Below are positions 16,980 to 28,284 of a DNA stretch of 64,000 nucleotides, in pieces. A model generated the notes under the pieces. That model made no database searches. It was not told the DNA's origin and saw only the letters and a program-made list of their open reading frames with translations. The DNA is from Lachnospiraceae bacterium. Its GTDB lineage: Bacteria > Bacillota > Clostridia > Lachnospirales > Lachnospiraceae. Position 1 is the stretch's first letter; each line of letters begins with the position of its first letter. The stretch is taken from the NCBI GenBank assembly GCA_015057055.1, contig SVFE01000001.1:23944-87943 (forward strand). Direction: 5' to 3'. Made by a program: the position numbers and the translations under genes.

Positions 16980-17008
16980 GGGGGAGACTATTATAGTCTC
17001 CCCCTTTT
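16980..17008 (+). terminator. Intrinsic terminator between convergent genes
   Basis: GGGGGAGACTA-TTA-TAGTCTCCCCC followed by TTTT. Confidence 0.85.
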
Positions 17009-17027
17009 GATTATGAATGTGTCTATG

Positions 17028-18365
17028 CTATTTTGTAAAGATGGTGTATTGGACAAAGTTCATGTCAAGAATCACATTTAATGGCTCGTCATTTCCGATT
17101 TCACATTGTCTGCGTAATTCATCCTCAGAATGGTTTATAATTAATAAGAGACCATCATTAAGATAATACATGGTGTAATCAGTATTGTTTGCCAACTCCA
17201 CATTGTTTATAAAAAAGTATCCGATACGAGTTTCTCCGTTGCCTGTACCGGGAGTTATGCCTTCAATATAGAATACAGCGTTTGTATCTGAAAAGCGTCC
17301 GTAGGTTTCGGCAACAACAATATCTGTGGTATATTCTTCCGTAATCTCCAAAGTAGTAAAGTGCTCTCCGAAAAGAGAAGAAAAACTATCGCTATTGTAG
17401 TTATCCGTCTGGATTACAATGCTATTAGTAATTGCTTCTTCGCCAGTGCCAATCTGGATTTGATAATCAATCTGTATTGTTTCAAAGGGAGAGTTATTGT
17501 AGTCGGTTCCGAGTTTGCCATATACCTCTTCAACAAGATCATAATTCAGGTTCTCAAAACACAATTGTGTTGAGTTTCCGGTTTCAAGTTCTGTGAAGGG
17601 CATGCGAATATCATTTTCTGCAAGGTAACGTAAACTGGTATATTCCGGAGTAATGTTTATTCCATTTACATAGATGTCGTTAATATATAAGAATACTTTT
17701 TTGTTGCTGTCATTATTGTTCTCCAAAGTAAGAAACATTGTGTTTGCCTCATCAAAAGAATCAAAGGTTAAAGAAACTCCGTTTTCATTGAAGATAACAT
17801 TATTTGTTACGTTTAGGTTAGTAAAAGCTTTTACTGCTGTATCAATGTTTTCAGTTGCAGTTTGATGGTAGGACAGAAATTCATTGTACAGACTGTCAAA
17901 ATCACTGCTGTACCATACATCATTTTCGGCAATAAAACCTGCTTGAATTTCATCTCTGTGAGTATCAATTAATAGTGCGGCTGCATTACCAAAATCTTCC
18001 CATTCTTGTAACTGCGCAAGTGCTTCTTCGTGCGTTTTCCCTTCGTAATAAATCATGGAACAATAAGCATAAATGAGTTCCCATAATTCCATTTTACGGG
18101 AGTCAGGGTCATTGGAAATCTCATCCATCATGATCTCGAAAGCTTCCATTTTTGCTTCTATATCGTCTTCGTCAGACCGGGGGGCTTCCGGTGTTTCGGC
18201 AACAGGTTCCTCATCAAGTTCCGATGTTTGTGATTCCTGAAGATTGGATTCGGTAACAGGTTCATTCGTGCTTGTGTTTTCGGTCTCTTCCGGTTTTTCG
18301 CCACAAGCAGTAAGACATGCTGCAAGTAAAAGGGCAGCAATAAAAGCAATGCTTTTCTTTTTCAT
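17028..18365 (-). CDS. Acidic hypothetical lipoprotein (445 aa); minus strand, mislabelled + in the ORF track
   Basis: The reverse complement of 18365 downward reads ATG AAA AAG AAA AGC ATT (MKKKSI); stop is CTA at 17028-17030 on +; GGAGGAG SD on the minus strand; lipobox LTAC then an E/T/S-rich linker. Confidence 0.9.
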   Translation of the reverse strand: MKKKSIAFIAALLLAACLTACGEKPEETENTSTNEPVTESNLQESQTSELDEEPVAETPEAPRSDEDDIEAKMEAFEIMMDEISNDPDSRKMELWELIYAYCSMIYYEGKTHEEALAQLQEWEDFGNAAALLIDTHRDEIQAGFIAENDVWYSSDFDSLYNEFLSYHQTATENIDTAVKAFTNLNVTNNVIFNENGVSLTFDSFDEANTMFLTLENNNDSNKKVFLYINDIYVNGINITPEYTSLRYLAENDIRMPFTELETGNSTQLCFENLNYDLVEEVYGKLGTDYNNSPFETIQIDYQIQIGTGEEAITNSIVIQTDNYNSDSFSSLFGEHFTTLEITEEYTTDIVVAETYGRFSDTNAVFYIEGITPGTGNGETRIGYFFINNVELANNTDYTMYYLNDGLLLIINHSEDELRRQCEIGNDEPLNVILDMNFVQYTIFTK

Positions 18366-18530
18366 ATTTTTGTTCTCCTCCTTTTGCTGGTTTATCAGCG
18401 TTTTTTTTAAATTTTAGTGTCTAAAAATCACAAAAAGTGTGACAATAAACATTACAGATTGTACCATATAAAATGTTGCGATTCAAGTTTAAAATAGAAT
18501 TACAAAAATGATGATGGAATAGGTGATGTA

Positions 18531-18716
18531 ATGGCAGAAGGGAAAAAGTTAGTCATTCGTAAGAAGGGCGAGGATGGTACCAAGACTTTTTCGGTACGTT
18601 TGAAGGAAGAAACCATTCGGCGTATCGATGAACTGGCAATGAAGACAGATCGTAGCAGAAACGAATTGATTGGAATGCTTCTTGAATTTGGATTAGAAAA
18701 TTGTGAGACGGAATAG
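18531..18716 (+). CDS. Ribbon-helix-helix (CopG-like) DNA-binding protein
   Basis: TFSVRLKEETIRRIDELAMKTDRSRNELIGMLLE fits the RHH strand-helix-helix pattern; AGGTG SD. Confidence 0.8.
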   Translation: MAEGKKLVIRKKGEDGTKTFSVRLKEETIRRIDELAMKTDRSRNELIGMLLEFGLENCETE

Positions 18717-18729
18717 AAACGGAATAGAA
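18708..18729. repeat. Perfect 11-bp tandem duplication (ACGGAATAGAA x2) across the RHH stop codon
   Basis: 18708-18718 and 18719-18729 are identical. Confidence 0.9.
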
Positions 18730-18744
18730 CAAGAAAAGTGTTAT

Positions 18745-18778
18745 AGCCTATTGAGCAGTGTCTCGGTAGGCTTTTTTT
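18745..18778 (+). terminator. Intrinsic terminator after the RHH gene
   Basis: AGCCTATTGAG-CAGTGT-CTCGGTAGGCT then TTTTTT. Confidence 0.8.
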
Positions 18779-18857
18779 ATTTGTTCAAAAAATGTTTGTA
18801 GTTTATGAAGTGAAGGGGTGAGTTTAAATCGATGAGGTAAAACTCCTGTCGCAACTA

Positions 18858-18900
18858 TTGCCATATACATGTTTGTATGCTAGACTAGTATCATAAATGA
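18858..18900 (+). promoter_or_regulatory. sigmaA promoter with a candidate palindromic operator at +1
   Basis: TTGCCA (18858-63), N17, TAGACT (18881-86) with extended TG; TCAT-AA-ATGA at 18891-18900. Confidence 0.55.
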
Positions 18901-18920
18901 GATTAGAAAAGAGGGAATCT

Positions 18921-19436
18921 ATGGAAGAATTAGTAAAGGTACTTACAGACCCGGTTTCCAACAAGATTTTACAGCTTATAAGAGTGAATGCGGAGATGAC
19001 GATAGCGGATATTCTGGCTGCCAATATTGGCATACCCAGGGCAACAATCTATCGGAAAATGGAGAAGATAGAAAAGGTTGGTGCTGTGTATGTATCATCC
19101 ACCAACAAGATTCGGGGACAGATAGAAAAGGTATATCGGATTAAGGATATCTATATCGCATCCAAGGGTGATCATAAAGAAGATATGAGAAATGTTACGG
19201 TAAGTCTTATGGGGCTGATAGAACAGTATGAGACTTATTTTCGAAAAGAGAATGCAGATGTTGCAAAAGATAAATTGTTTCTGTTCAATTACAATATTTC
19301 TTTGGACGATGAGGATTTTTCTGCAATGCTGAAGGAAATTTACCAGATTGTGGATAAGTATCAGAACAAGCAAGGTACAGGCGATGAGAAGTTAAGGAAT
19401 CTGTATATGATATCAGCACCGGGAGGCGAAGTATAA
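18921..19436 (+). CDS. ArsR-like winged-helix transcriptional regulator
   Basis: LTDPVSNKILQLI...IPRATIYRKMEKIEKVG HTH; GAGGGA SD before ATG 18921; stop overlaps the next start. Confidence 0.8.
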   Translation: MEELVKVLTDPVSNKILQLIRVNAEMTIADILAANIGIPRATIYRKMEKIEKVGAVYVSSTNKIRGQIEKVYRIKDIYIASKGDHKEDMRNVTVSLMGLIEQYETYFRKENADVAKDKLFLFNYNISLDDEDFSAMLKEIYQIVDKYQNKQGTGDEKLRNLYMISAPGGEV

Positions 19437-20434
19437 TGAATAGAAAGAGAAAAGAACGTATCTTATATCCGCAGTGTGAAAATGGCATCTATAGGTATGA
19501 ATACGTAGAAATCGGCGGGATGAAACAATATATTCAAATAAGAGGCAAGGATAAAAGGAATCCGATATTGCTTTTTATCCATGGCGGTCCGGGTGGGTCC
19601 ATGGCCGGTTATGCTCATGTTATGCAGGATTTGTGGGAAGAAAAGTTTACCGTAGTAAATTGGGACCAGAGAAATACCTGTAAGACATACCTTGCAAATA
19701 AGGATAAATCCATGGAGATTGCTAAAACCGGCACCATGGAGGATTACATGGGGGATATCGACGAAATTATCAAATATCTTCATGGCATATACGAATTTGA
19801 AAAGATTATTTTGCTTGGATTTTCCTGGGGGTCTGTAATTGGCTCGGAATATGCAAAGAGGCATCCTGAAAACGTGTACTGTTATATAGGAGTGGGACAG
19901 CTTATCAACTACGCGGAAGGGTTCCGTGTGGTAGGAAAACAGGTGATAGAGCGTGCAGGGCAAAAGAAGAATAAAAAGGATATAGAAAAGATTCATAAAG
20001 TGCTTAATTCGATGCCGGATGGACCGTATATGACTGACGAGTTCATGAAACAGATACAGATTTTTGTCAGAATCAGCAACCAATATTTGTCAGAGAACAG
20101 TAGGAGTTTATCGTGGAAAGATTTTCTGACATCACCGCTTATGGATCGTAAGGCCAGAAAGGCTATGTATGTGCCTCATGAATTGCTGGCCGGGACATTT
20201 AAAACATTGTACGAATTTGATTTTCGAAATGATTTGAATTTTCCGGTACCGGTATATTTTATAACCGGTGAGGAGGATACCGCCTGTCCGCATAGTTTGC
20301 TTAAAGATATTGCAGATGACATCAATGCACCGAAGAAAAAGTTGTTTATTATGGAAAAAGCAGGGCATTGTTGCTTTTATGATAGAAAACAGGAGTTTTA
20401 CAAGCTTTTGCTGGATGTGAGCGATGAGAATTAA
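19436..20434 (+). CDS. Alpha/beta hydrolase, prolyl aminopeptidase (S33)-like
   Basis: HGGPGG oxyanion motif, WDQR, GFSWG nucleophile elbow, GEED and AGH triad positions. Confidence 0.85.
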   Translation: MNRKRKERILYPQCENGIYRYEYVEIGGMKQYIQIRGKDKRNPILLFIHGGPGGSMAGYAHVMQDLWEEKFTVVNWDQRNTCKTYLANKDKSMEIAKTGTMEDYMGDIDEIIKYLHGIYEFEKIILLGFSWGSVIGSEYAKRHPENVYCYIGVGQLINYAEGFRVVGKQVIERAGQKKNKKDIEKIHKVLNSMPDGPYMTDEFMKQIQIFVRISNQYLSENSRSLSWKDFLTSPLMDRKARKAMYVPHELLAGTFKTLYEFDFRNDLNFPVPVYFITGEEDTACPHSLLKDIADDINAPKKKLFIMEKAGHCCFYDRKQEFYKLLLDVSDEN

Positions 20435-20479
20435 GGGGAATGTACACATTCATTTCGATTTTTGGAAGGGATAAAGAGC

Positions 20480-20864
20480 ATGATTGATTTGAAAAATGGC
20501 AGAATTAGAATTGCGGATGATTTAATTATTTATCCGAATTATACATTTGATTTGTTTAAGAAAAGTTCTTTCTATACGAATCAGGATGGCGTTAGAATAA
20601 TAATTTTGGAGAAACAGCAAGTTATCGACGGGAATAAATATATGGCAATGCTTTTCTTTAGAAATAATATATATGTTGTCGCTGGTTTGCTGTGAAGAAC
20701 AGTATTCGGAAGAAAATGAAAAGGAAAGGAAAAAACTGCACGACCGTATACTGGAGAAATATGGTGTTATAGGGAAAGCGGAGTATGCATGGGGAACCGT
20801 TTCGTCAGAATATGACGGACGCAGCAATTGCTGTAGTATTAACTTTGTTTTTTATGGTGAATAA
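20480..20864 (+). pseudogene. Hypothetical gene split by a frameshift in an (AT)4 tract
   Basis: ORFs 20480-20695 and 20673-20864 overlap in different frames; adding one AT at 20667-20674 gives a continuous ...FRNNIYMLSLVCCEE... reading. Confidence 0.65.
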
Positions 20865-20911
20865 TAAGAGAAGCAAATTTTTAGACATCTTTTTATATCG
20901 CTGATAAACCG

Positions 20912-20941
20912 AGCCGATGGGGTTAATCTCATCGGCTTTTT
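20912..20941 (+). terminator. Intrinsic terminator
   Basis: AGCCGATGGG-GTTAAT-CTCATCGGCT then TTTT. Confidence 0.8.
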
Positions 20942-20945
20942 CCGA

Positions 20946-21008
20946 TTCACAACATAAAAAGGTTGTTTCACGCAAAAAAATGTAGCAAAGACACAGACCG
21001 GACGATAT
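20946..21008 (+). promoter_or_regulatory. LytTR-type direct repeats plus sigma28-like promoter (site 1)
   Basis: TTCACAAC (20946) and TTCACGCA (20967) start 21 bp apart; then TAG (20983-85), N16, ACGATAT (21002-08). Confidence 0.6.
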
Positions 21009-21049
21009 ACCTATTGGATAGTATGCTAGTATTTTTGAAAGGACCGGTG

Positions 21050-21643
21050 ATGTTTGTGTCTATGACAATCGGAAATAATATGGGAATCAGTAGTGGTTAC
21101 AAGGTAAGTAAAGCAGGTGGTTATAAAAATGTGCGGGAGTATTCCAATTACTTGTTGGGCAAATACAGTTGCCTGAAACCGGGAAGTAACGTGGCCGTGT
21201 CTGTTACATCAGGAATGCTAAGAAAAGCAATGAGTGATGAGAAAACCGGGCAATGGTTGGAGAGAGAACTTGCCAAAGCACCTGATTATATAAAAGAGGC
21301 ACAGCAGTCTGCCGGTGCTCGCGGGAGTAAACTGTTATCGGTTTCTATAGAGTTTGGAGAAGAGTATACAACTATGTGCACTCTGACAGTTACGGATACA
21401 CCGGGTACGGATGAAGATATTGATAAGTGGCTTGAGAGAGTTGAAGAGAACAGAGAAAAACAAAAGGCGACGGAAAAGAGGAACGAAAAAAGAAGTGCCG
21501 AGAAAAAACTGACAGAGCAGAGAATAGAAGAGTATACTTTCAAAGGACTGGATTTAAAGAGTGTTACCGACAGTTTTATTGCAAAGATGTCTTCGGTACG
21601 TTCTGTAATGCCCAAAGCGTCCGGATTTGACATGAAAGTATAA
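21050..21643 (+). CDS. Uncharacterised protein A, DUF6033-like, ends FDMKV
   Basis: YSNYLLGKY...LRKAMSDEKTGQWLERE aligns by eye with 23952 and 26607; K/E-rich coiled coil; no signal peptide; AAAGGA SD (21062 is an alternative start). Confidence 0.7.
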   Translation: MFVSMTIGNNMGISSGYKVSKAGGYKNVREYSNYLLGKYSCLKPGSNVAVSVTSGMLRKAMSDEKTGQWLERELAKAPDYIKEAQQSAGARGSKLLSVSIEFGEEYTTMCTLTVTDTPGTDEDIDKWLERVEENREKQKATEKRNEKRSAEKKLTEQRIEEYTFKGLDLKSVTDSFIAKMSSVRSVMPKASGFDMKV

Positions 21644-21672
21644 AAGAAATATGAATTGCAAAGGAAGATACC

Positions 21673-22380
21673 ATGCATATAGGAATTTGTGATGATGAAA
21701 AAAACATAAGGGAATTATTAGCCGGTAAAGTGACAAAGCAGTATCCGGATGCCGATATTATATTGTTTTCATCGGGGGAAGAACTACTTTTATCGGACAA
21801 ACAGATAGATATTCTATTTTTGGATATTCAAATGCAAGGTAGAAATGGGATGGAAGCGGCTAGGGAACTTCGTAAGAAGGACAAGGGGGTAATACTTGTT
21901 TTTGTGACCGGAGTGGAGGACTATGTCTTTCAGGCATTTGATGTAGGTGCTTTTCATTACATTGTGAAGCCGGTTGATGATGCGAAGTTTGAAGATGTAC
22001 TTTACAGGGCAGTGTCGGAAGTGAAATCTCAAAAAATGCACGAAAAAGAGCCGGAAGATAAATGTTTGATGATAAATAACGGCGGAGTACACATTAAAGT
22101 GATGATTGAGGATATTGTTTACGCGGAGATATTCAATCGAAAGATAGTTATTCATAAAACGGACGAGACAATTGAGTATTACGGGAAGATGTCTGATCTT
22201 GAAACGTTAGCAGGAGAGAACTTTTTCAGACCGCACAGGGCGTATCTCATCAATTTTAAGTATGTTGAAAAATACGATGCTTCTACAGTTTATCTGGAAA
22301 AAGGAAGTGTTCTTATGGCAAAAGGTAAATTCCCGGAGTTTGTCAAAAGATATATGAAGTATATTCAGCGGAAGGGATAA
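21673..22380 (+). CDS. LytTR-family response regulator (AgrA/VirR-like)
   Basis: Receiver ICDDE...LDIQM...VKP plus LytTR domain FFRPHRAYLIN. Confidence 0.93.
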   Translation: MHIGICDDEKNIRELLAGKVTKQYPDADIILFSSGEELLLSDKQIDILFLDIQMQGRNGMEAARELRKKDKGVILVFVTGVEDYVFQAFDVGAFHYIVKPVDDAKFEDVLYRAVSEVKSQKMHEKEPEDKCLMINNGGVHIKVMIEDIVYAEIFNRKIVIHKTDETIEYYGKMSDLETLAGENFFRPHRAYLINFKYVEKYDASTVYLEKGSVLMAKGKFPEFVKRYMKYIQRKG

Positions 22381-22385
22381 TATTT

Positions 22386-23753
22386 ATGAGTCATATGGAA
22401 ATGTACTGGGCGATAGCCAACCATTCAATATCTATAATTAACATTTTGGTGGAATGCTGGTTGTTTTACCGATTTGTGCAGCCGTTTATGAAAAAAGGGG
22501 CATATTACGCCGGATTAAGTTATTCGGCGACAATGCTGGTTTTTTATTGTGTTCCGCAGGAAATTTATTATCCGTATTTTTTCGCAATTCTTATAGCATG
22601 TGTTACGATGTGCTTGTTGGAAAGAAGAAATATTAAGCAGAAAGTATTTTTGGCAACATGTATGTATCTGTTTCGCTGGGTGGTCTATGGAGTAACATTG
22701 GTACTTAGAGATATACTGTTTGCCCTGTTTATTAATACGCCGTATATGTATACGAGACCGATAAAACAATTATGCGCATATATTGTTGTGGAGACGGTGT
22801 ATTACGCCGTGGCTTTATCGGTAATGTATCTGGTGATTCGATTGATTCACAAAGTGTATATAAATAAAAAAGATGACATTTCCGGTAAAGAATTGTTACT
22901 GCTTTATGCCACTCTGTTAACAGTAATGGTAGGCTATATTACTTTCAATTTCTTTTCTAAGGTATATCTGGAGGACATGGAAGTTTATATCTGGAATGTG
23001 CACCCGGGCTATACTTTTTTGCGGGTAATCTATCAGATTGTTTCGTTTGCGGCAATACTTATCGCTATTGTGATATACCAAAAGATAAAGGAAAAACAAC
23101 GTGAAGATAAGGTTAATATTTTATTGGCAGAGCAGCTGGAAAATACGAAACAGCGTATCAGTGAAGTAGAGAAATTGTACGGAGATATGCGTGCAATGAA
23201 ACATGATATGGGAAATCATATCTCGGTGTTGGAAAACCTAATTATGAAAAATGAAACCGAAGAGGTGGAAAAGTATTTATCCGAGTTAAAAGCATCTTGG
23301 AATGAGAACGGGACAGAAATAAAGACGGGCAATCCTGTCACGGATGTGGTTCTGGCGCAAAAGAGGAGAGAGGCAGAAGAAAAAGGAATCGGGTTTAAAT
23401 GTGAATTCGTTTATCCGACGGATACCAATATCAATGCTTTCGATGTCAGTGTGATTTTAAGCAATGCGCTGGAAAATGCTTTTGGAGGTGCAAGCGGCTG
23501 CGAAAATCCTTATGTTTTGATAAATGCGTATCGTAAGAAAAATGCGTATATGTTGGAAGTGAAAAACAGTATCCTTAAATCGGTAGAGATTGATGGTGAA
23601 ACCGGTTTGCCGGAAACAACGAAGGAAGATAAGGAAAGTCACGGTTTTGGACTTGCCAATATTCGCAAGGTGGCGCAGAAATATTACGGAGACATAGATA
23701 TCCATCAGGATGAAAACAGTTTTACATTGACGGTTATGTTGATGGTTGAATAA
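22386..23753 (+). CDS. AgrC/VirS-like membrane sensor histidine kinase (GHKL)
   Basis: About 7 N-terminal TM helices, H-box KHDMGNH, N-box SNALEN, G-box TTKEDKESHGFGL. Confidence 0.9.
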   Translation: MSHMEMYWAIANHSISIINILVECWLFYRFVQPFMKKGAYYAGLSYSATMLVFYCVPQEIYYPYFFAILIACVTMCLLERRNIKQKVFLATCMYLFRWVVYGVTLVLRDILFALFINTPYMYTRPIKQLCAYIVVETVYYAVALSVMYLVIRLIHKVYINKKDDISGKELLLLYATLLTVMVGYITFNFFSKVYLEDMEVYIWNVHPGYTFLRVIYQIVSFAAILIAIVIYQKIKEKQREDKVNILLAEQLENTKQRISEVEKLYGDMRAMKHDMGNHISVLENLIMKNETEEVEKYLSELKASWNENGTEIKTGNPVTDVVLAQKRREAEEKGIGFKCEFVYPTDTNINAFDVSVILSNALENAFGGASGCENPYVLINAYRKKNAYMLEVKNSILKSVEIDGETGLPETTKEDKESHGFGLANIRKVAQKYYGDIDIHQDENSFTLTVMLMVE

Positions 23754-23761
23754 GAAATATG

Positions 23762-23802
23762 AGACACAGTCTGTACAAAAAAGTGTGGATTGTGTCTTTT
23801 TT
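23762..23802 (+). terminator. Intrinsic terminator after the histidine kinase
   Basis: AGACACAGTCTGTAC-AAAAAA-GTGTGGATTGTGTCT (with G-U pairs) then a T run. Confidence 0.75.
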
Positions 23803-23808
23803 ATTTGC

Positions 23809-23883
23809 TTCACAACAGAAAAAGGTCGGTTCACAACAAGTCTATTTAGTATGAAGTTTACTATTCCGAAATAGGAAGTAGCA
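23809..23883 (+). promoter_or_regulatory. LytTR-type direct repeats plus sigma28-like promoter (site 2)
   Basis: TTCACAAC at 23809 and 23830 (21-bp period); TAG (23847-49), N16, CCGAAAT (23866-72); AAGTAGCA at 23876. Confidence 0.65.
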
Positions 23884-23951
23884 GAAGTGTTTGCATATGG
23901 AGAAACGGATTTCTGAACAAAAAGCAAGGAGGAAAACAAGGAGGTTTACCG

Positions 23952-24917
23952 ATGTCAATTATTTCGAATGTAAGTGGTAGTGGACTAAATGCTCAAAATG
24001 CACATAGGCTGAAAGATATCCAAAGGGCAGAAGGAGCAGAAGAAAATGCAAAAAAACGGATGGAAAGAAATCGTGAAAAAGAGGGTGTGAGTTACGAAAA
24101 AACGATTTCCGATTCTGTAACAGCAGGACTTGCGTTTATGCAGGGCTTGGAAAAACAGTTTGGCGGTACAAAGTTCTTTGTTGGAACAGTAAGTTATGGA
24201 CAGACTTATGGTAATTCTATGGATACGAATTTTGTGGTTAATCCCCAATTTCTTGATAAGTTGGGGACTGATGAAGCGGTCAGAAAACAGTTTGAAGAAG
24301 ACGTCAAATATCTGACAGATTTTTCTGAAAGGTTTCGAAAACAGCAACTTGCATCTGGGCGTGAGATTGTAAATCAGGGGTGGTTTTGTGATGAGAATGG
24401 TAATTGGGGTGGCTGGTCGGTTGGCCGACCAATCAATCAAAACTCTGTTTTGCAGGATATGACAGATAGTGCCGAGAAAATTCGGAAGGAAAAGTTTGTG
24501 GAGCGAGAAAAAGCGGAAGCAGAATTGAAAGAACATTTTGGAGACCGTTTCAAAGGATTTAGTGTGAAATGGGCAGAAGATGATAAAACCGGGGAATCGG
24601 AAGGAACAAAAGACAGGGAAGCTTCTTCCGATGAAGAAAGTGAGACCGTATCAGGTAAAGTTGGTGTAAATGTCGGCAAGACTGCAAGAAAAATTTCGGC
24701 GGCAAAGACAAAGGAACAGTTGCGGATGGTGATGGCTGAAATTAAAAGCGATGCCCAGGTCGTGAAAGCAGGAATTGAAAAGGGTTGGTGCGACGAGACA
24801 GAGTTGGACAAAGTGGAGATGCTTATGTCTATGGCGCAGAATCGCATGGGACAAGTGGAAGATAGAGAGGCAACGCCGGAAGAAGAGAGCATGTTTACTC
24901 TGGCTTCATTATTATAA
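23952..24917 (+). CDS. Uncharacterised protein B, DUF6033-like with an extra C-terminal helical domain
   Basis: FMQGLEKQF...NPQFLDKLGTDEAVRKQFEED...GWFCDENG core; AAGGAGG SD. Confidence 0.75.
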   Translation: MSIISNVSGSGLNAQNAHRLKDIQRAEGAEENAKKRMERNREKEGVSYEKTISDSVTAGLAFMQGLEKQFGGTKFFVGTVSYGQTYGNSMDTNFVVNPQFLDKLGTDEAVRKQFEEDVKYLTDFSERFRKQQLASGREIVNQGWFCDENGNWGGWSVGRPINQNSVLQDMTDSAEKIRKEKFVEREKAEAELKEHFGDRFKGFSVKWAEDDKTGESEGTKDREASSDEESETVSGKVGVNVGKTARKISAAKTKEQLRMVMAEIKSDAQVVKAGIEKGWCDETELDKVEMLMSMAQNRMGQVEDREATPEEESMFTLASLL

Positions 24918-24945
24918 TTTGATAGGAAAAAGGAGGATGTTTCGT

Positions 24946-25731
24946 ATGAAAATTAACGGTATAGACGGAATGAACACTTCAATCAAAGGGATGAATATGT
25001 TGCAATCAAATGATTCTGTCAGTAAAAATATTCAGAATAAAATTGCCAATGCGCAGAAACAGTTGCAGGATCTCTCTTCAAACAAAGAGATGAGTATTGA
25101 AGAAAAAATGAAAAAAAGACAGGAAATACAACAACAAATTGCAGATTTGAATAGCCAACTAAGACAACATCAAATCACCCAAAGAAAAGAGCAACAGGCA
25201 AAAGAAACTTCTATGAATGATATGCTTGGCGCAAGTAAGCAGACTGCTTCCGGAACAGGAAAACGAACCGCAGGTTTATCAAGGGCAAATATGAAAGCTA
25301 TGATTTCTGCGGATTCTGCAATGGCGCAGGCAAAGATACAAGGCAGCGTAGCGGGGCAAATGGAAGGTAAAGCCGGTGTATTGGAAACAGAAATCAAGTT
25401 GGACGCTGCCCGGGGAGTCGACGTGGAAAAAAAGAAAGAGGAACTGGCAGAAGTAGAACAGAAGGCAACTGCGGCAGAGACTGCGCAGCTGAGTACTTTA
25501 GCAGATGCCAATAAGGAACTGGAAGCGGCAACGAAGGAAGAACGGCAGACAAAGCGTGTCGACGAAAAGAATACGAAGGAAGAAAAGACAGAAAATAAGA
25601 TTAGTGTGGATGCTATTGATAATTCGGATGTTGACAATGTGATAAATGAAAATGGTACGGAAATGACAGAAACCGAGGAGCCTCTTTCAAAGGAAACAAC
25701 TTCGTCCGTGCATGTTGATGTTAGAGTATAG
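24946..25731 (+). CDS. FlxA-like coiled-coil protein C, ends VDVRV
   Basis: IQNKIANAQKQLQDLS...KMKKRQEIQQQIADLNSQL pattern typical of FlxA-like proteins; AGGAGG SD before ATG 24946. Confidence 0.7.
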   Translation: MKINGIDGMNTSIKGMNMLQSNDSVSKNIQNKIANAQKQLQDLSSNKEMSIEEKMKKRQEIQQQIADLNSQLRQHQITQRKEQQAKETSMNDMLGASKQTASGTGKRTAGLSRANMKAMISADSAMAQAKIQGSVAGQMEGKAGVLETEIKLDAARGVDVEKKKEELAEVEQKATAAETAQLSTLADANKELEAATKEERQTKRVDEKNTKEEKTENKISVDAIDNSDVDNVINENGTEMTETEEPLSKETTSSVHVDVRV

Positions 25732-25743
25732 GAGGAGATTGCG

Positions 25744-26493
25744 ATGGCAGGAATAAATAAATTTAATCAATATATGAATCTGTATAATTCAGAGGATTAT
25801 TCGTTGTTTTCGGGAGGTGCGCAGTTGCCGTCAATGAGCAGCTCCTATAGCCTTTCGGATTATGCTGCAATAAAGAACGGTAGTTATGGCAAAGCGTTAA
25901 AAGCGTATTATAAAAAAATGGATGCAGAGAAATTATCTTTCGGAGCAGATTCCGCACAAAAGAATTTGCTTATGAAATCCGGCGCCGATGCTTTGGAGAA
26001 ATCTGCGGAGGCTCTAAAAAAGGATACTCTTTGGGAGAAGAAGGAAACCCGGGAAAAAGATGAAGCAACGGGAGAAGAAACTGTAGTGCATGATTATGAC
26101 CGGGATGCTATTGCCAAAGCGGTAAAAACTTTTGTTGAGGATTATAATGATGCCGTGGAACAGGCCGGTGATTCCGATTCAAAAGAGGTATTAAGAAATG
26201 CAATGTGGATGACCGATACTACGGATGCAAACAAAAAGGTCCTTGCAAAAATCGGGATTGAAGTAGGAAAGGGAAATAAGCTGGAGTTGGATGAAGAAAC
26301 CCTCAGAAAGGCGGATATCGGCACGCTCAAAATGCTTTTTACAGGCTATAATTCTTTTGCAGATAAGGTATCCATGAAAGCAAGAAGTATTTCTGCTGCA
26401 TCATCAAAGGCCGGCGTTACTTATACGAGTGACGGAAAGTATAATGACGTAGTGTCGAAACTTGTATCAAAGAAAGTGAACAAAGAAGTATAA
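25744..26493 (+). CDS. Uncharacterised protein D resembling the FliD C-terminal domain
   Basis: AVKTFVEDYN...LAKIGIEV...LELDEETL...LKMLFTG resembles FliD_C; GGAGGAG SD. Confidence 0.6.
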   Translation: MAGINKFNQYMNLYNSEDYSLFSGGAQLPSMSSSYSLSDYAAIKNGSYGKALKAYYKKMDAEKLSFGADSAQKNLLMKSGADALEKSAEALKKDTLWEKKETREKDEATGEETVVHDYDRDAIAKAVKTFVEDYNDAVEQAGDSDSKEVLRNAMWMTDTTDANKKVLAKIGIEVGKGNKLELDEETLRKADIGTLKMLFTGYNSFADKVSMKARSISAASSKAGVTYTSDGKYNDVVSKLVSKKVNKEV

Positions 26494-26519
26494 AATTGCA
26501 TATCCTCTTGTGATGTTTA

Positions 26520-26558
26520 TAATATTTGAGGACAAATATGCCGATATACAAAGTAGCA
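26520..26558 (+). promoter_or_regulatory. sigma28 (SigD/FliA)-like promoter (site 3)
   Basis: TAAT (26520-23), N16, GCCGATAT (26540-47), a perfect SigD -10; AAGTAGCA at 26551. Confidence 0.7.
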
Positions 26559-26606
26559 TAGTATGGGTAAAAGGATTTACCGCGCAAAATACAAGGAGGT
26601 AGCAGG

Positions 26607-27380
26607 ATGGATGTTGGTATAATGAATAGCAGTATTCATGCATCGTCAGAGGCATATGCTGCGAAAGAAGCAAAGCAAACGAAAGAGACAAAGCCGGCGA
26701 AAGAAAACAAACCTACCGAGGAAGTTAAAAAATACGGTGTTTCCGGTAGGACAGTAGGGCAACCGAAACTTAGTGAAAATGCAAAGAAGTATTATGAGGA
26801 ATTAAAGTCTAAATTTCAAAATATGGATTTTATTCTGGTGAGCAAGGATATGAAGGAAATGGCCAAAGCGAATGCCGGAAGTTTTGCTAATCCTCATAAA
26901 ATGGTTGTTTTGATTGACGAAGAAAAAATTGAACGTATGGCGACGGACGAGCAGTATCGCAAGCAATACGAAGGCATTATTGCTTCCGCGGGAAACAAAT
27001 TACCGCAGCTACAAAAAACGCTGGAAAAATCCGGGAAGGTGAAAGCCTTCGGCATGCAGATTAATGACAATGGAGCAGCTTCGTTTTTTGCCGTGATGGA
27101 TAACGCATTTAAGTCCCAGGCCAAACGATTGGAAAAACAAAGAGCCGAGAAAAAAGAAGAAAAGAAAGCGGCAGAGAAAAAAGCGGAGAAAGCAAAACGG
27201 GAGGAACAACTTAAGGAGAAACGCCTTTCGAAAGGCGAAGAATCGGAAACGGTAATATATGCAGATTCGTTCGAAGAGTTAAAACTGAAAGTAGAGGATT
27301 ATATTTTTGAACATATGGCGGACACCGTAAAGACGGATTCTGAAAGATATCTTGGAACGCATATCGATTTCAAGGGTTAG
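26607..27380 (+). CDS. Uncharacterised protein E, DUF6033-like, ends IDFKG
   Basis: YYEELKSKF...IDEEKIERMATDEQYRKQYEG...FGMQINDNG core plus K/E/A coiled coil. Confidence 0.75.
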   Translation: MDVGIMNSSIHASSEAYAAKEAKQTKETKPAKENKPTEEVKKYGVSGRTVGQPKLSENAKKYYEELKSKFQNMDFILVSKDMKEMAKANAGSFANPHKMVVLIDEEKIERMATDEQYRKQYEGIIASAGNKLPQLQKTLEKSGKVKAFGMQINDNGAASFFAVMDNAFKSQAKRLEKQRAEKKEEKKAAEKKAEKAKREEQLKEKRLSKGEESETVIYADSFEELKLKVEDYIFEHMADTVKTDSERYLGTHIDFKG

Positions 27381-27390
27381 GAGGCACGTC

Positions 27391-28134
27391 ATGATTACGG
27401 GAACCATCTATAATGCGGGGAAAATGCTGGAAATGACACAAAAGTGGGAGCAAAAGAAAGCATCCGGTAATATCCTCGGAAAAGAGAAAAAGGAATTGTC
27501 ACCGGAAGAACAACAACTCAAAATGTATCAGGAACAGCTTGCGAGTATGCGGGAGGGAAACGAAGTCAGTGCCATATATGCAAAACTTCAAAGCGGTCAG
27601 GAACTGAGTCCGGAAGAAGAGGGAATCCTTCGTGAGAGAGACCCTAAACTGTACATGGAGTATAAGGCGGATCGAATGGAACAGGAAGCCTACGAGAAAG
27701 AGTTGAAAAATTGTAAGACAAAGGAAGAAGCGGAAAAACTTCATGTAAACCGAATGAACGGCAAGCTGTCTGAATTAAAATCAATTGTAAATAATCCGAA
27801 TATCCCTAAAAGTGAAAAAATAAAAGAGTCACAGAGAATTCTGGGAGACACTACGAAAACGGCGCAGATTTTTCAGATATTTACAAAAAGTGAGGAGTTT
27901 AAGAAACTGCCCACGGAAGAAGAAGCGGCGGAAAACAGCCGGGAAGAGGCGAATCTGCAAGAAGAGCAACCGCCGGTAGAAACGGATGAATATGCAGAGG
28001 TTACTTCAGATGGTGCTTCAGGTAGTGATAACGATAATAACATTTCGACGGAGGTATTGAAAGAAATGCTTGCGTTGGAGAAAAAGCATTTTGGAGAATT
28101 AAAAAAGACGGTAAAAATTGATGTCACAATCTAA
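27391..28134 (+). CDS. Uncharacterised coiled-coil protein F, ends IDVTI
   Basis: GGAGG SD overlapping the upstream stop; repeated ELSPEE; acidic tail. Confidence 0.7.
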   Translation: MITGTIYNAGKMLEMTQKWEQKKASGNILGKEKKELSPEEQQLKMYQEQLASMREGNEVSAIYAKLQSGQELSPEEEGILRERDPKLYMEYKADRMEQEAYEKELKNCKTKEEAEKLHVNRMNGKLSELKSIVNNPNIPKSEKIKESQRILGDTTKTAQIFQIFTKSEEFKKLPTEEEAAENSREEANLQEEQPPVETDEYAEVTSDGASGSDNDNNISTEVLKEMLALEKKHFGELKKTVKIDVTI

Positions 28135-28137
28135 TAA

Positions 28138-28166
28138 TTTACTTTTAAGCCCGAACATGGTATATT
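28138..28166 (+). promoter_or_regulatory. sigmaA-like promoter for ychF
   Basis: TTTACT, N17, TATATT with extended TG. Confidence 0.5.
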
Positions 28167-28284
28167 GATACTGTTGTGCGGGCTTATTTTTATGGAAAGA
28201 ACCCGGTGCACGTCATGAAATGAAACCAACAAAGGAAAATAAAAAAGCCGTAAAGCAGCGGTTTTTAAGGAGGAAATAGAAGCC

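Follow-up and report, generated by a model that had tools for sequence, protein, structure and literature searches.

The 64-kb stretch of Lachnospiraceae bacterium DNA analyzed here, referred to below as the window, carries between 20.9 and 28.2 kb a cluster of eight genes, all on the plus strand, which code for six uncharacterized proteins, here named A to F, and for a response regulator (RR) and a histidine kinase (HK). The genes fall into three transcription units, A-RR-HK, B-C-D, and E-F. Gene A (21050..21643), the product of which is a diverged DUF6033 protein of 197 amino acids (aa), opens the first unit and is followed by RR (21673..22380), which combines a receiver with a LytTR DNA-binding domain (Response_reg, 61.8 bits; LytTR, 53.6 bits) and in which D51, by inspection of the sequence, would be the phosphoacceptor, and by HK (22386..23753), a kinase of the AgrC/HPK10 type with a sensor region of six to seven transmembrane (TM) segments and a GHKL domain (HATPase_c_5, 84.4 bits). 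The second unit encodes B (23952..24917), a 321-aa protein with a diverged DUF6033 region and a C-terminal domain; C (24946..25731), a FlxA-like coiled-coil protein of 261 aa; and D (25744..26493), a 249-aa protein in which only the C-terminal motifs of FliD are recognizable. The third unit consists of E (26607..27380), a full-length DUF6033 protein of 257 aa, and F (27391..28134), a 247-aa protein without a Pfam family that is modeled as all helical with an acidic linker.

An earlier note on this DNA had described six lysine- and glutamate-rich proteins lacking a Sec signal and TM helices, arranged in three transcription units around a regulator-kinase pair. The open reading frames (ORFs) are present as described, with a lysine plus glutamate content of 20 to 30% in each of the six proteins. 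A hydropathy scan of the sequences gave a 19-residue maximum of ≤0.6 for A to F, and these proteins therefore contain neither a TM helix nor the h-region of a signal peptide; HK, with six to seven TM-like windows, is the sole membrane protein of the cluster. The three units are borne out by the terminators and promoters described below and by the recurrence of the module in relatives. The label "AgrA/AgrC-like" given to the pair fits the domain types, LytTR and HATPase_c_5, and does not extend to the system as a whole. No AgrB match was obtained among the proteins encoded between 14.2 and 30.4 kb, and it is the soluble DUF6033 protein A that precedes RR. With neither AgrB nor AgrD, the cluster is therefore not an agr system.

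The family assignments made for these proteins, DUF6033, FlxA-like, and FliD_C, all withstood comparison with the Pfam gathering thresholds. For DUF6033 (PF19498; threshold, 25 bits), E scored 255.4 bits over the full profile (positions 1 to 205), A scored 37.1 bits, and B scored 35.3 bits. Alignment with hhalign related E to A with a probability of 96% and E to B with a probability of 79%, and profile comparison grouped A, B, and E with two additional subfamilies as a DUF6033 superfamily. A single paralogous superfamily comprising all six proteins was considered and rejected, as C, D, and F have no homology to DUF6033 or to one another that is detectable by hhalign. Protein C matched the FlxA-like family (PF14282; threshold, 26.3 bits) with 59.9 bits over residues 16 to 93. 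Protein D matched FliD_C (threshold, 25.4 bits) with 33.5 bits at profile positions 106 to 201 only, and 11 of the 14 members of its family do likewise. A profile of the D family matches the solved Pseudomonas FliD structure (PDB 5fhy; E = 3e-6) via an FVxxYN motif and an LGIt..dGtLxxDxxkL motif; a PDB sequence search with D alone returned nothing useful. FliD_N was not matched in D at E values of up to 0.1, and D lies below the 400 aa that served as the criterion for a full-length FliD. D is a short FliD relative that is too small to contain the head domains. Some members of its family begin with MRITTQMLN, resembling axial proteins in this respect. Family F has no Pfam match, and searches of NCBIfam, PHROGs, and PADLOC yielded no matches for any of A to F.

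DUF6033 proteins are numerous. A search for homologues returned 3,260 sequences, relatives were found in 407 species genomes, and the family forms 837 clusters at 50% identity. The best 80 of the 407 genomes mostly bear the label Lachnospiraceae bacterium, and the named genera include Agathobacter, Roseburia, Lachnospira, Butyrivibrio, and Eubacterium. An E-type gene is also present in Parablautia muri D42-62 (L050). Where database names are given, A, D, E, and F are called "hypothetical protein" and C is called "FlxA-like family protein," the cluster of B being unnamed. A literature search found no paper that mentions DUF6033. Structural models add little to this picture. The AlphaFold2 (AF2) model of E (mean predicted local distance difference test [pLDDT] score, 64.5) consists of a four-stranded α/β core, a long helix that is rich in Lys/Glu, and a floppy tail, with residues 1 to 47 being disordered (pLDDT, <50). 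The model of F (pLDDT, 75.5, and about 90 for residues 40 to 180) shows a helical bundle joined through an acidic disordered linker to a further helix, beyond which the tail is free. Foldseek searches of the PDB with both models gave no match at an E value of ≤0.001, and the folds of E and F therefore provide no functional lead.

A feature that crosses these family boundaries is the extreme C terminus. Proteins A, C, E, and F end in FDMKV, VDVRV, IDFKG, and IDVTI, respectively, that is, in the pattern hydrophobic-D-hydrophobic-x-x, and the observation that four of the proteins share a pentapeptide pattern extends to their homologues. The pattern is kept in 76 of 86 homologues of E, in all seven of A, in all six of C, and in 15 of 19 of F, compared with 15 of 677 other ORFs; at least 5 of these 15 belong to cluster neighbors, namely, DUF3879 copies ending in RRGFDIQV and the gene after E in loci L045 and L051. 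Protein B has a differing tail (...FTLASLL). Many members of the D family have the tail as well (YDFWG), and others end in KVDEEV; D itself ends in KVNKEV and is, judging from these endings, a decayed fifth case. The tail is common to families without detectable mutual homology, and such an alternating pattern where unrelated proteins end suggests a strand with which all of them dock on one partner.

The most informative promoter is that of the third unit. The comparison drew on 87 stretches from related genomes that contain DUF6033 genes (loci L001 etc.), a minority of which were annotated gene by gene. Upstream of E, at 26520..26547, the sequence TAAT is followed after 16 nucleotides (nt) by GCCGATAT, with the −10 element at 26540 to 26547; this predicted sigma-28 promoter is not accompanied by LytTR repeats. 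The motif nCGATA[AT] occurs upstream of E-type genes in 62 of 83 loci, typically at about −65 from the start codon, against a background for the CGATAW core of 0.15 per 250 nt. When 61 distinct upstream regions were anchored on the −10 element, the consensus was TTAA (70 to 80%), N16, GCCGATAT. To count independent cases, E-type DUF6033 proteins were clustered at 70% protein identity into 36 lineages, and 604 genes of the same loci served as controls. The full motif, T[TA]A[AT]-N15-17-nCGATA[AT], was present in 21 of the 36 lineages and in 19 of the 604 controls (Fisher p = 4e-19), and the control matches include flagellin genes, mbl genes (probably of an mbl-flgF-flgG locus), genes for DUF3879 proteins, and a 198-aa family next to F. 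In loci L048, L075, and L076, the flagellin genes are preceded by TAAA-N16-nCCGATAT/A, with the same geometry as in the E promoter. The published sigma-28 (flagellin promoter) consensus for Lachnospiraceae is TAAA N16-17 MCGATAa, and related Lachnospiraceae possess both flgM and fliA, the latter as the last gene of the flgB-fliA locus (PMC3720852). Because the sigma-28 promoter is conserved across lineages, we conclude that E-type DUF6033 genes are, as far as their promoters tell, conserved members of the late flagellar regulon.

Downstream of F homologues, genes for DUF3879 proteins were seen in L008 (2533 to 3195), L018 (3144 to 3806), and L033 (1682 to 2344). This family is described in Pfam only from an E. 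rectale gene, and a literature search returned nothing relevant on it. The genes have the full sigma-28 promoter motif and their products have the RRGFDIQV tail; the DUF3879 proteins are likely further members of the regulon.

Units 1 and 2 combine a similar −10 element with a second type of signal. A 21-bp-periodic repeat had been reported at the head of both units, and we located it at 20946 and at 23809. In unit 1 (20946..20975), the direct repeats, starting at 20946 and 20967, read TTCACAACA, 12 nt, TTCACGCAA, and in unit 2 (23809..23838), where they start at 23809 and 23830, they read TTCACAACA, 12 nt, TTCACAACA. The two regions (20937 to 20971 and 23800 to 23834) are 80% identical over 35 nt. 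The sequence TTCACAAC-N13-TTCAC heads both units and occurs at only these two places in the window, and exact matches to TTCAC-N16-TTCAC are likewise confined to 20946 and 23809. Each copy lies just after a terminator. A terminator-like hairpin of the upstream gene (GCCGATG...CATCGGC plus a T run; 20913..20944), read by eye, isolates unit 1, and the intrinsic terminator of unit 1, a 16-bp stem with a T run, lies at 23761..23798. A probable terminator of unit 3 (28147..28193), in which AAGCCCG...CGGGCTT is followed by ATTTTTAT, was also read by eye; the terminator scan missed it because the loop is large.

In both units, the two 9-bp repeats end a few bases upstream of a weak −35 element, which is the classic layout of a LytTR site, and the promoters of A and B contain only the −10 part of the sigma-28 motif (nCGAWAT). 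The −10 element of unit 1, GACGATAT (21001..21008), belongs to a CGATATA sequence that is invariant in five promoters, with the CGA located 57 nt downstream of the position where the first repeat begins. That of unit 2, the sigma-28-like TCCGAAAT (23865..23872), is invariant in four orthologous promoters; here the CGA follows 58 nt after the first repeat, and the −35 region reads TTTAG (23845 to 23849). A weak −35 element such as this TTTAG in the B type is as would be expected if the promoters depended on an activator. Sigma-28-type −10 elements can thus be placed in all three units, at 21001, 23865, and 26540, in agreement with the earlier note. However, CCGATAW occurs 48 times in the window, mostly in coding sequence, and the elements are therefore not significant within the window alone; their weight comes from the comparative data. 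A consensus scan for sigma-70-type promoters was negative in front of A, B, and E.

The repeats recur before regulator and paralogue operons in L019, L014/L023, L085, L086, L048, L075, and L076. In total, at least 16 promoters in nine loci have 9-bp repeats with a 21-bp period and a CGAWAY exactly 57 to 58 nt after the first repeat; the promoters are partly dependent on one another but represent at least four half-site classes, and the frequency of the motif in these loci is 0.0015 per position. The half-sites differ by clade (TTCACAACA, TTCACACCC, TTTGCAACA, and TTACAACA), and the register of the −10 element is constant. Such divergence matches what is expected if each regulator has coevolved with its own site. 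When five regulator promoters were aligned, the two repeats and CGATATA proved to be the only invariant parts of the footprint. Gene A is absent from L019, and the repeats directly precede the regulator there; the predicted autoregulation would therefore be the conserved feature. A transcription start about 8 nt after the −10 element would place the repeats at about −71 to −42.

The module itself is recurrent. The whole cluster is also present in L019, at about 70% identity, and L085 and L086 contain LytTR regulator and kinase genes, several DUF6033 genes, a FlxA-like gene, and a D homologue. L048, L075, and L076, in which the regulator is about 40% identical, have genes for a flagellin, RR, HK, DUF6033 paralogues, a D-family protein, and unknown proteins, followed by an E-type DUF6033 gene, fliS, and mbl-flgF-flgG. 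The fliS homologue lies directly after the E-type gene (L048, 10762 to 11241; L075, 10655 to 11155; L076, 10669 to 11148), and no full-length FliD was seen in these three loci; elsewhere, fliD usually precedes fliS. The E-F pairing is confined to closer relatives, about 20 loci; in other loci, E is found by itself behind its sigma-28 promoter, and the gene that follows it varies. In L001, L002, and L003, the genes after E proved on comparison not to be homologues of F. L086 (521 to 13117) has a tandem array of three LytTR-kinase pairs. Clear direct-repeat promoters, with half-sites TTCACACCC and TTCACAACA, respectively, belong to the first two pairs, and the third is ambiguous; DUF6033 arrays follow the first two pairs, which suggests parallel, insulated channels.

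These observations lead us to favor, with a probability of about 0.5, the reading of the cluster as an accessory module of the late (sigma-28/FliA/SigD) flagellar regulon that is specific to Lachnospiraceae and is gated by a two-component system. Its products would be exported late by the flagellar type III apparatus or would dock on this apparatus or on the filament tip. The regulatory half of this proposal, which the earlier note had put forward in outline, is well supported by related genomes through the repeats, the sigma-28-type promoters, and the recurrent module. As to the products, A to F are probably signal-gated accessory products of the flagellar program, and their export via the flagellar type III system is plausible. 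Export gains circumstantial support from the late flagellar promoters, the FliD relative, the disordered N terminus of E, the placement of the module between the flagellin gene and fliS in one clade, and the mostly flagellated genera in which the family is found.

In the proposed mechanism, E-F would be a plain late flagellar unit that is produced once sigma-28 is released upon completion of the hook-basal body, a release that is established in Salmonella and Bacillus. A-RR-HK and B-C-D would additionally need the phosphorylated LytTR regulator to be bound at about −71 to −42, and the two requirements together would form an AND gate for the flagellar assembly state and a signal sensed by the membrane kinase. 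Positive autoregulation would follow, since the operon of the regulator carries the site itself. The products, that is, the DUF6033 paralogues, the FlxA-like coiled-coil protein, the mini-FliD, and the helical protein F, would be late export substrates or flagellum-docking proteins, and their tail would be the strand by which they all dock on one partner, be it a chaperone, the export gate, or each other. A bolder version of this proposal, which we regard as speculative and on balance unlikely, is that abundant flagellated gut commensals (Agathobacter, Roseburia, Lachnospira, and Butyrivibrio) use the flagellar type III apparatus for the signal-gated secretion of their own repertoire of tagged proteins, comprising DUF6033 and allied families with the C-terminal docking strand. 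To turn on some of this repertoire, LytTR activators would then recruit sigma-28 polymerase, constituting a new, activator-dependent class of sigma-28 promoter, and the cargo would act on the host or on neighboring microbes or would assemble at the tip around the mini-FliD.

Several points weigh against a module of the flagellar regulon with exported products. The window contains no flagellar genes and no fliA, and of 46 long loci, just 4 have flagellar structural genes within 10 kb. The sequence CGATATAAT, present in five regulator promoters, includes a perfect sigma-A TATAAT with a G at −14, so that the housekeeping sigma factor could use these promoters. The DUF6033 core has a mean column identity of 65%, and conservation of this degree is more in keeping with a protein that has fixed partners inside the cell than with a secreted effector, which would evolve fast. 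The N terminus of F is modeled as helical (pLDDT, 56 to 69) and not as disordered. Lastly, a flagellin-like N-terminal pattern, M-x-[IV]-x-[GAT], was set aside as post hoc and only modestly enriched; it was found in 6 of 6 members of family C, 6 of 7 of A, 21 of 26 of c1, 15 of 21 of D, and 1 of 19 of F, compared with 15% of controls.

The conserved core and the helical F would also fit the main alternative, which we consider possible but unlikely and in which regulation operates as proposed and the proteins stay in the cytoplasm as chaperones, modulators of the motor or switch, or regulators of late genes, with the tail docking on an intracellular partner. The compact model of the α/β core and the well-predicted, chaperone-like helical bundle of F would suit such functions, as would the E-type gene that adjoins fliS in one clade. 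FlxA of E. coli, the product of a prophage-borne gene of a proteobacterium, offers a parallel, as it is FliA regulated and yet dispensable for flagellar function. However, the models of E and F match no FliS, FliT, or FlgN fold, and D is related to FliD, a cap protein that is itself exported, with axial-like N termini in some members of its family. The many variable paralogues per genome, the acidic low-complexity linkers, and the terminal tags also look more like cargo than like housekeeping chaperones.

The TATAAT within the five regulator promoters raises a further alternative, namely, that units 1 and 2 have ordinary sigma-A promoters served by a LytTR activator, as in agr- or bacteriocin-like systems, that the CGA is part of an extended −10 element or an activator contact, and that only E-F, adjacent by chance, is linked to flagella. 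To our knowledge, all characterized LytTR activators work with the housekeeping sigma factor, and a literature search found no LytTR regulator at a sigma-28 promoter and nothing that connects LytTR regulators with flagella or SigD. In contrast, the B-type promoters (TCCGAAATAGG) and others (CGATACAGT, CGATATGGT, and CGATACATT) are poor as sigma-A hexamers and keep the CGA register, the CGA is invariant in at least 16 promoters despite the diverged half-sites, and the sigma-70 scan found nothing at the A and B promoters. In addition, the regulated genes are paralogues of sigma-28-driven genes, and the module lies between flagellin and fliS in one clade. We therefore consider this alternative improbable.

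It is less probable still that the proteins are cargo of an unlinked route, such as a type VII secretion system-like pathway or a matrix or surface structure, for which the tail would be the signal and flagellar coregulation would be incidental. A motif at the extreme C terminus of unrelated families does behave like a sorting tag, and flagellar export signals are normally N terminal. However, flagellar substrates use their C-terminal regions for chaperone binding, as in FliS-flagellin, FliT-FliD, and FlgN-FlgK/L, and no secretion system genes were found in the window or among the annotated loci. Finally, a phage or mobile-element cargo or a defense system, for which the low GC content over 17 to 24 kb, the short contigs of many relatives, and the MazF toxin and two serine recombinases adjacent in L014 could be cited, was rejected as highly improbable given the absence of PHROGs and PADLOC matches, the single remote relative among 2.9 million viral contigs, and the location of the cluster downstream of rsgA in both the window and L019.

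For an accessory module of the late flagellar regulon, the closest functional precedent would be the sigma-28-dependent, nonflagellar Feds, FspA, and CiaI of Campylobacter jejuni, several of which are secreted via the flagellum (PMC9856085). Like A to F, these proteins are small and have no Sec signal; as is proposed here, they are produced from sigma-28 promoters along with the late flagellar genes, and they are not needed for motility (PMC9856085). There is no sequence relationship, however, and the Campylobacter genes are scattered and have neither a dedicated two-component gate nor a shared C-terminal tag; export was shown for the Campylobacter proteins, whereas here it is proposed from sequence. 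With characterized LytTR regulons (AgrA P2/P3, ComE, VirR, and CdtR), the cluster shares the receiver plus LytTR architecture, the HPK10/AgrC-type kinase, the 9-bp repeats with a 12-bp spacer upstream of the −35 element, and an autoregulatory site. It differs in lacking AgrB/AgrD and genes for peptide export and in having a −10 element of the sigma-28 type where theirs is of the housekeeping type. The D family retains the FVxxYN and LGIt..dGtLxxDxxkL motifs of FliD (HAP2) and passes the FliD_C threshold, but its members have 220 to 250 aa compared with 400 to 900 aa for FliD and represent one of several paralogous families in a regulated array, and D itself gave no FliD_N match. Likewise, C exceeds the Pfam threshold for the family of E. 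coli FlxA (PF14282), but the match covers only an 80-residue coiled-coil region, to which C adds a variable region and the VDVRV tail.

The types of regulator and the sigma-28 logic are thus already known, whereas in the literature found we encountered no description of the protein families, the shared tail, or the pairing of LytTR sites with a sigma-28-type −10 element. In the human and animal gut, flagellated Lachnospiraceae rank with the most abundant bacteria, and it is to a large extent through their flagella that the immune system encounters them. Promoter conservation places at least 3,000 unannotated proteins from 407 species genomes in the late flagellar regulon, and further coregulated families that share a terminal tag are defined. 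The promoter design, LytTR repeats with a sigma-28 −10 element, would combine the flagellar assembly state with an external signal. If exported, the products would form an accessory flagellar secretome, the first to be described from Firmicutes that live as gut commensals; if retained, they would still be unrecognized conserved parts of the flagellar program.

The cluster, from an uncultured Lachnospiraceae that cluster look-ups place in gut samples, is transcribed in vivo, as shown by low-depth coverage of A, RR, HK, B, C, D, and E in contigs from gut metatranscriptomes. Such contigs also cross the D-E spacer, where read-through and DNA contamination are inseparable, and no transcription starts are readable from them. 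Housekeeping genes flank the cluster, with rsgA and rpe upstream and, on the downstream side, ychF and lgt, after which comes the mraZ division cluster. The GC content is 0.36 to 0.40 across positions 17000 to 24000 of the window and 0.44 to 0.50 in the flanks, and the region bounded by rsgA/rpe and ychF has the appearance of a variable island. The cluster of L019 directly follows rsgA, without genes corresponding to 16.3 to 20.9 kb of the window. Many close relatives lie on contigs of 2 to 7 kb, a hint of strain-variable or hard-to-assemble surroundings.

Some neighboring genes are also of note. In L014 (6346 to 10670), a MazF/PemK toxin gene and two large serine recombinase genes lie immediately downstream of the DUF6033 array, and in L002 (8052 to 12959), the second gene after a DUF6033 gene encodes a 1,635-aa flagellin, in which Flagellin_N and Flagellin_C are accompanied by a giant insert, and is directly preceded by a GGDEF gene. 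In the window, the only large minus-strand gene in the region (17028 to 18365) is a 445-aa ORF without a Pfam match and with a lipoprotein-type N terminus (…LLLAACLTACGEK). Just upstream of the cluster, at 20462 to 20864, a 135-aa ORF is split into two overlapping ORFs by the loss of 5 bp (ATAAT in a short repeat) that are present in contig L005 of the same species; this marks either a pseudogene or an assembly error.

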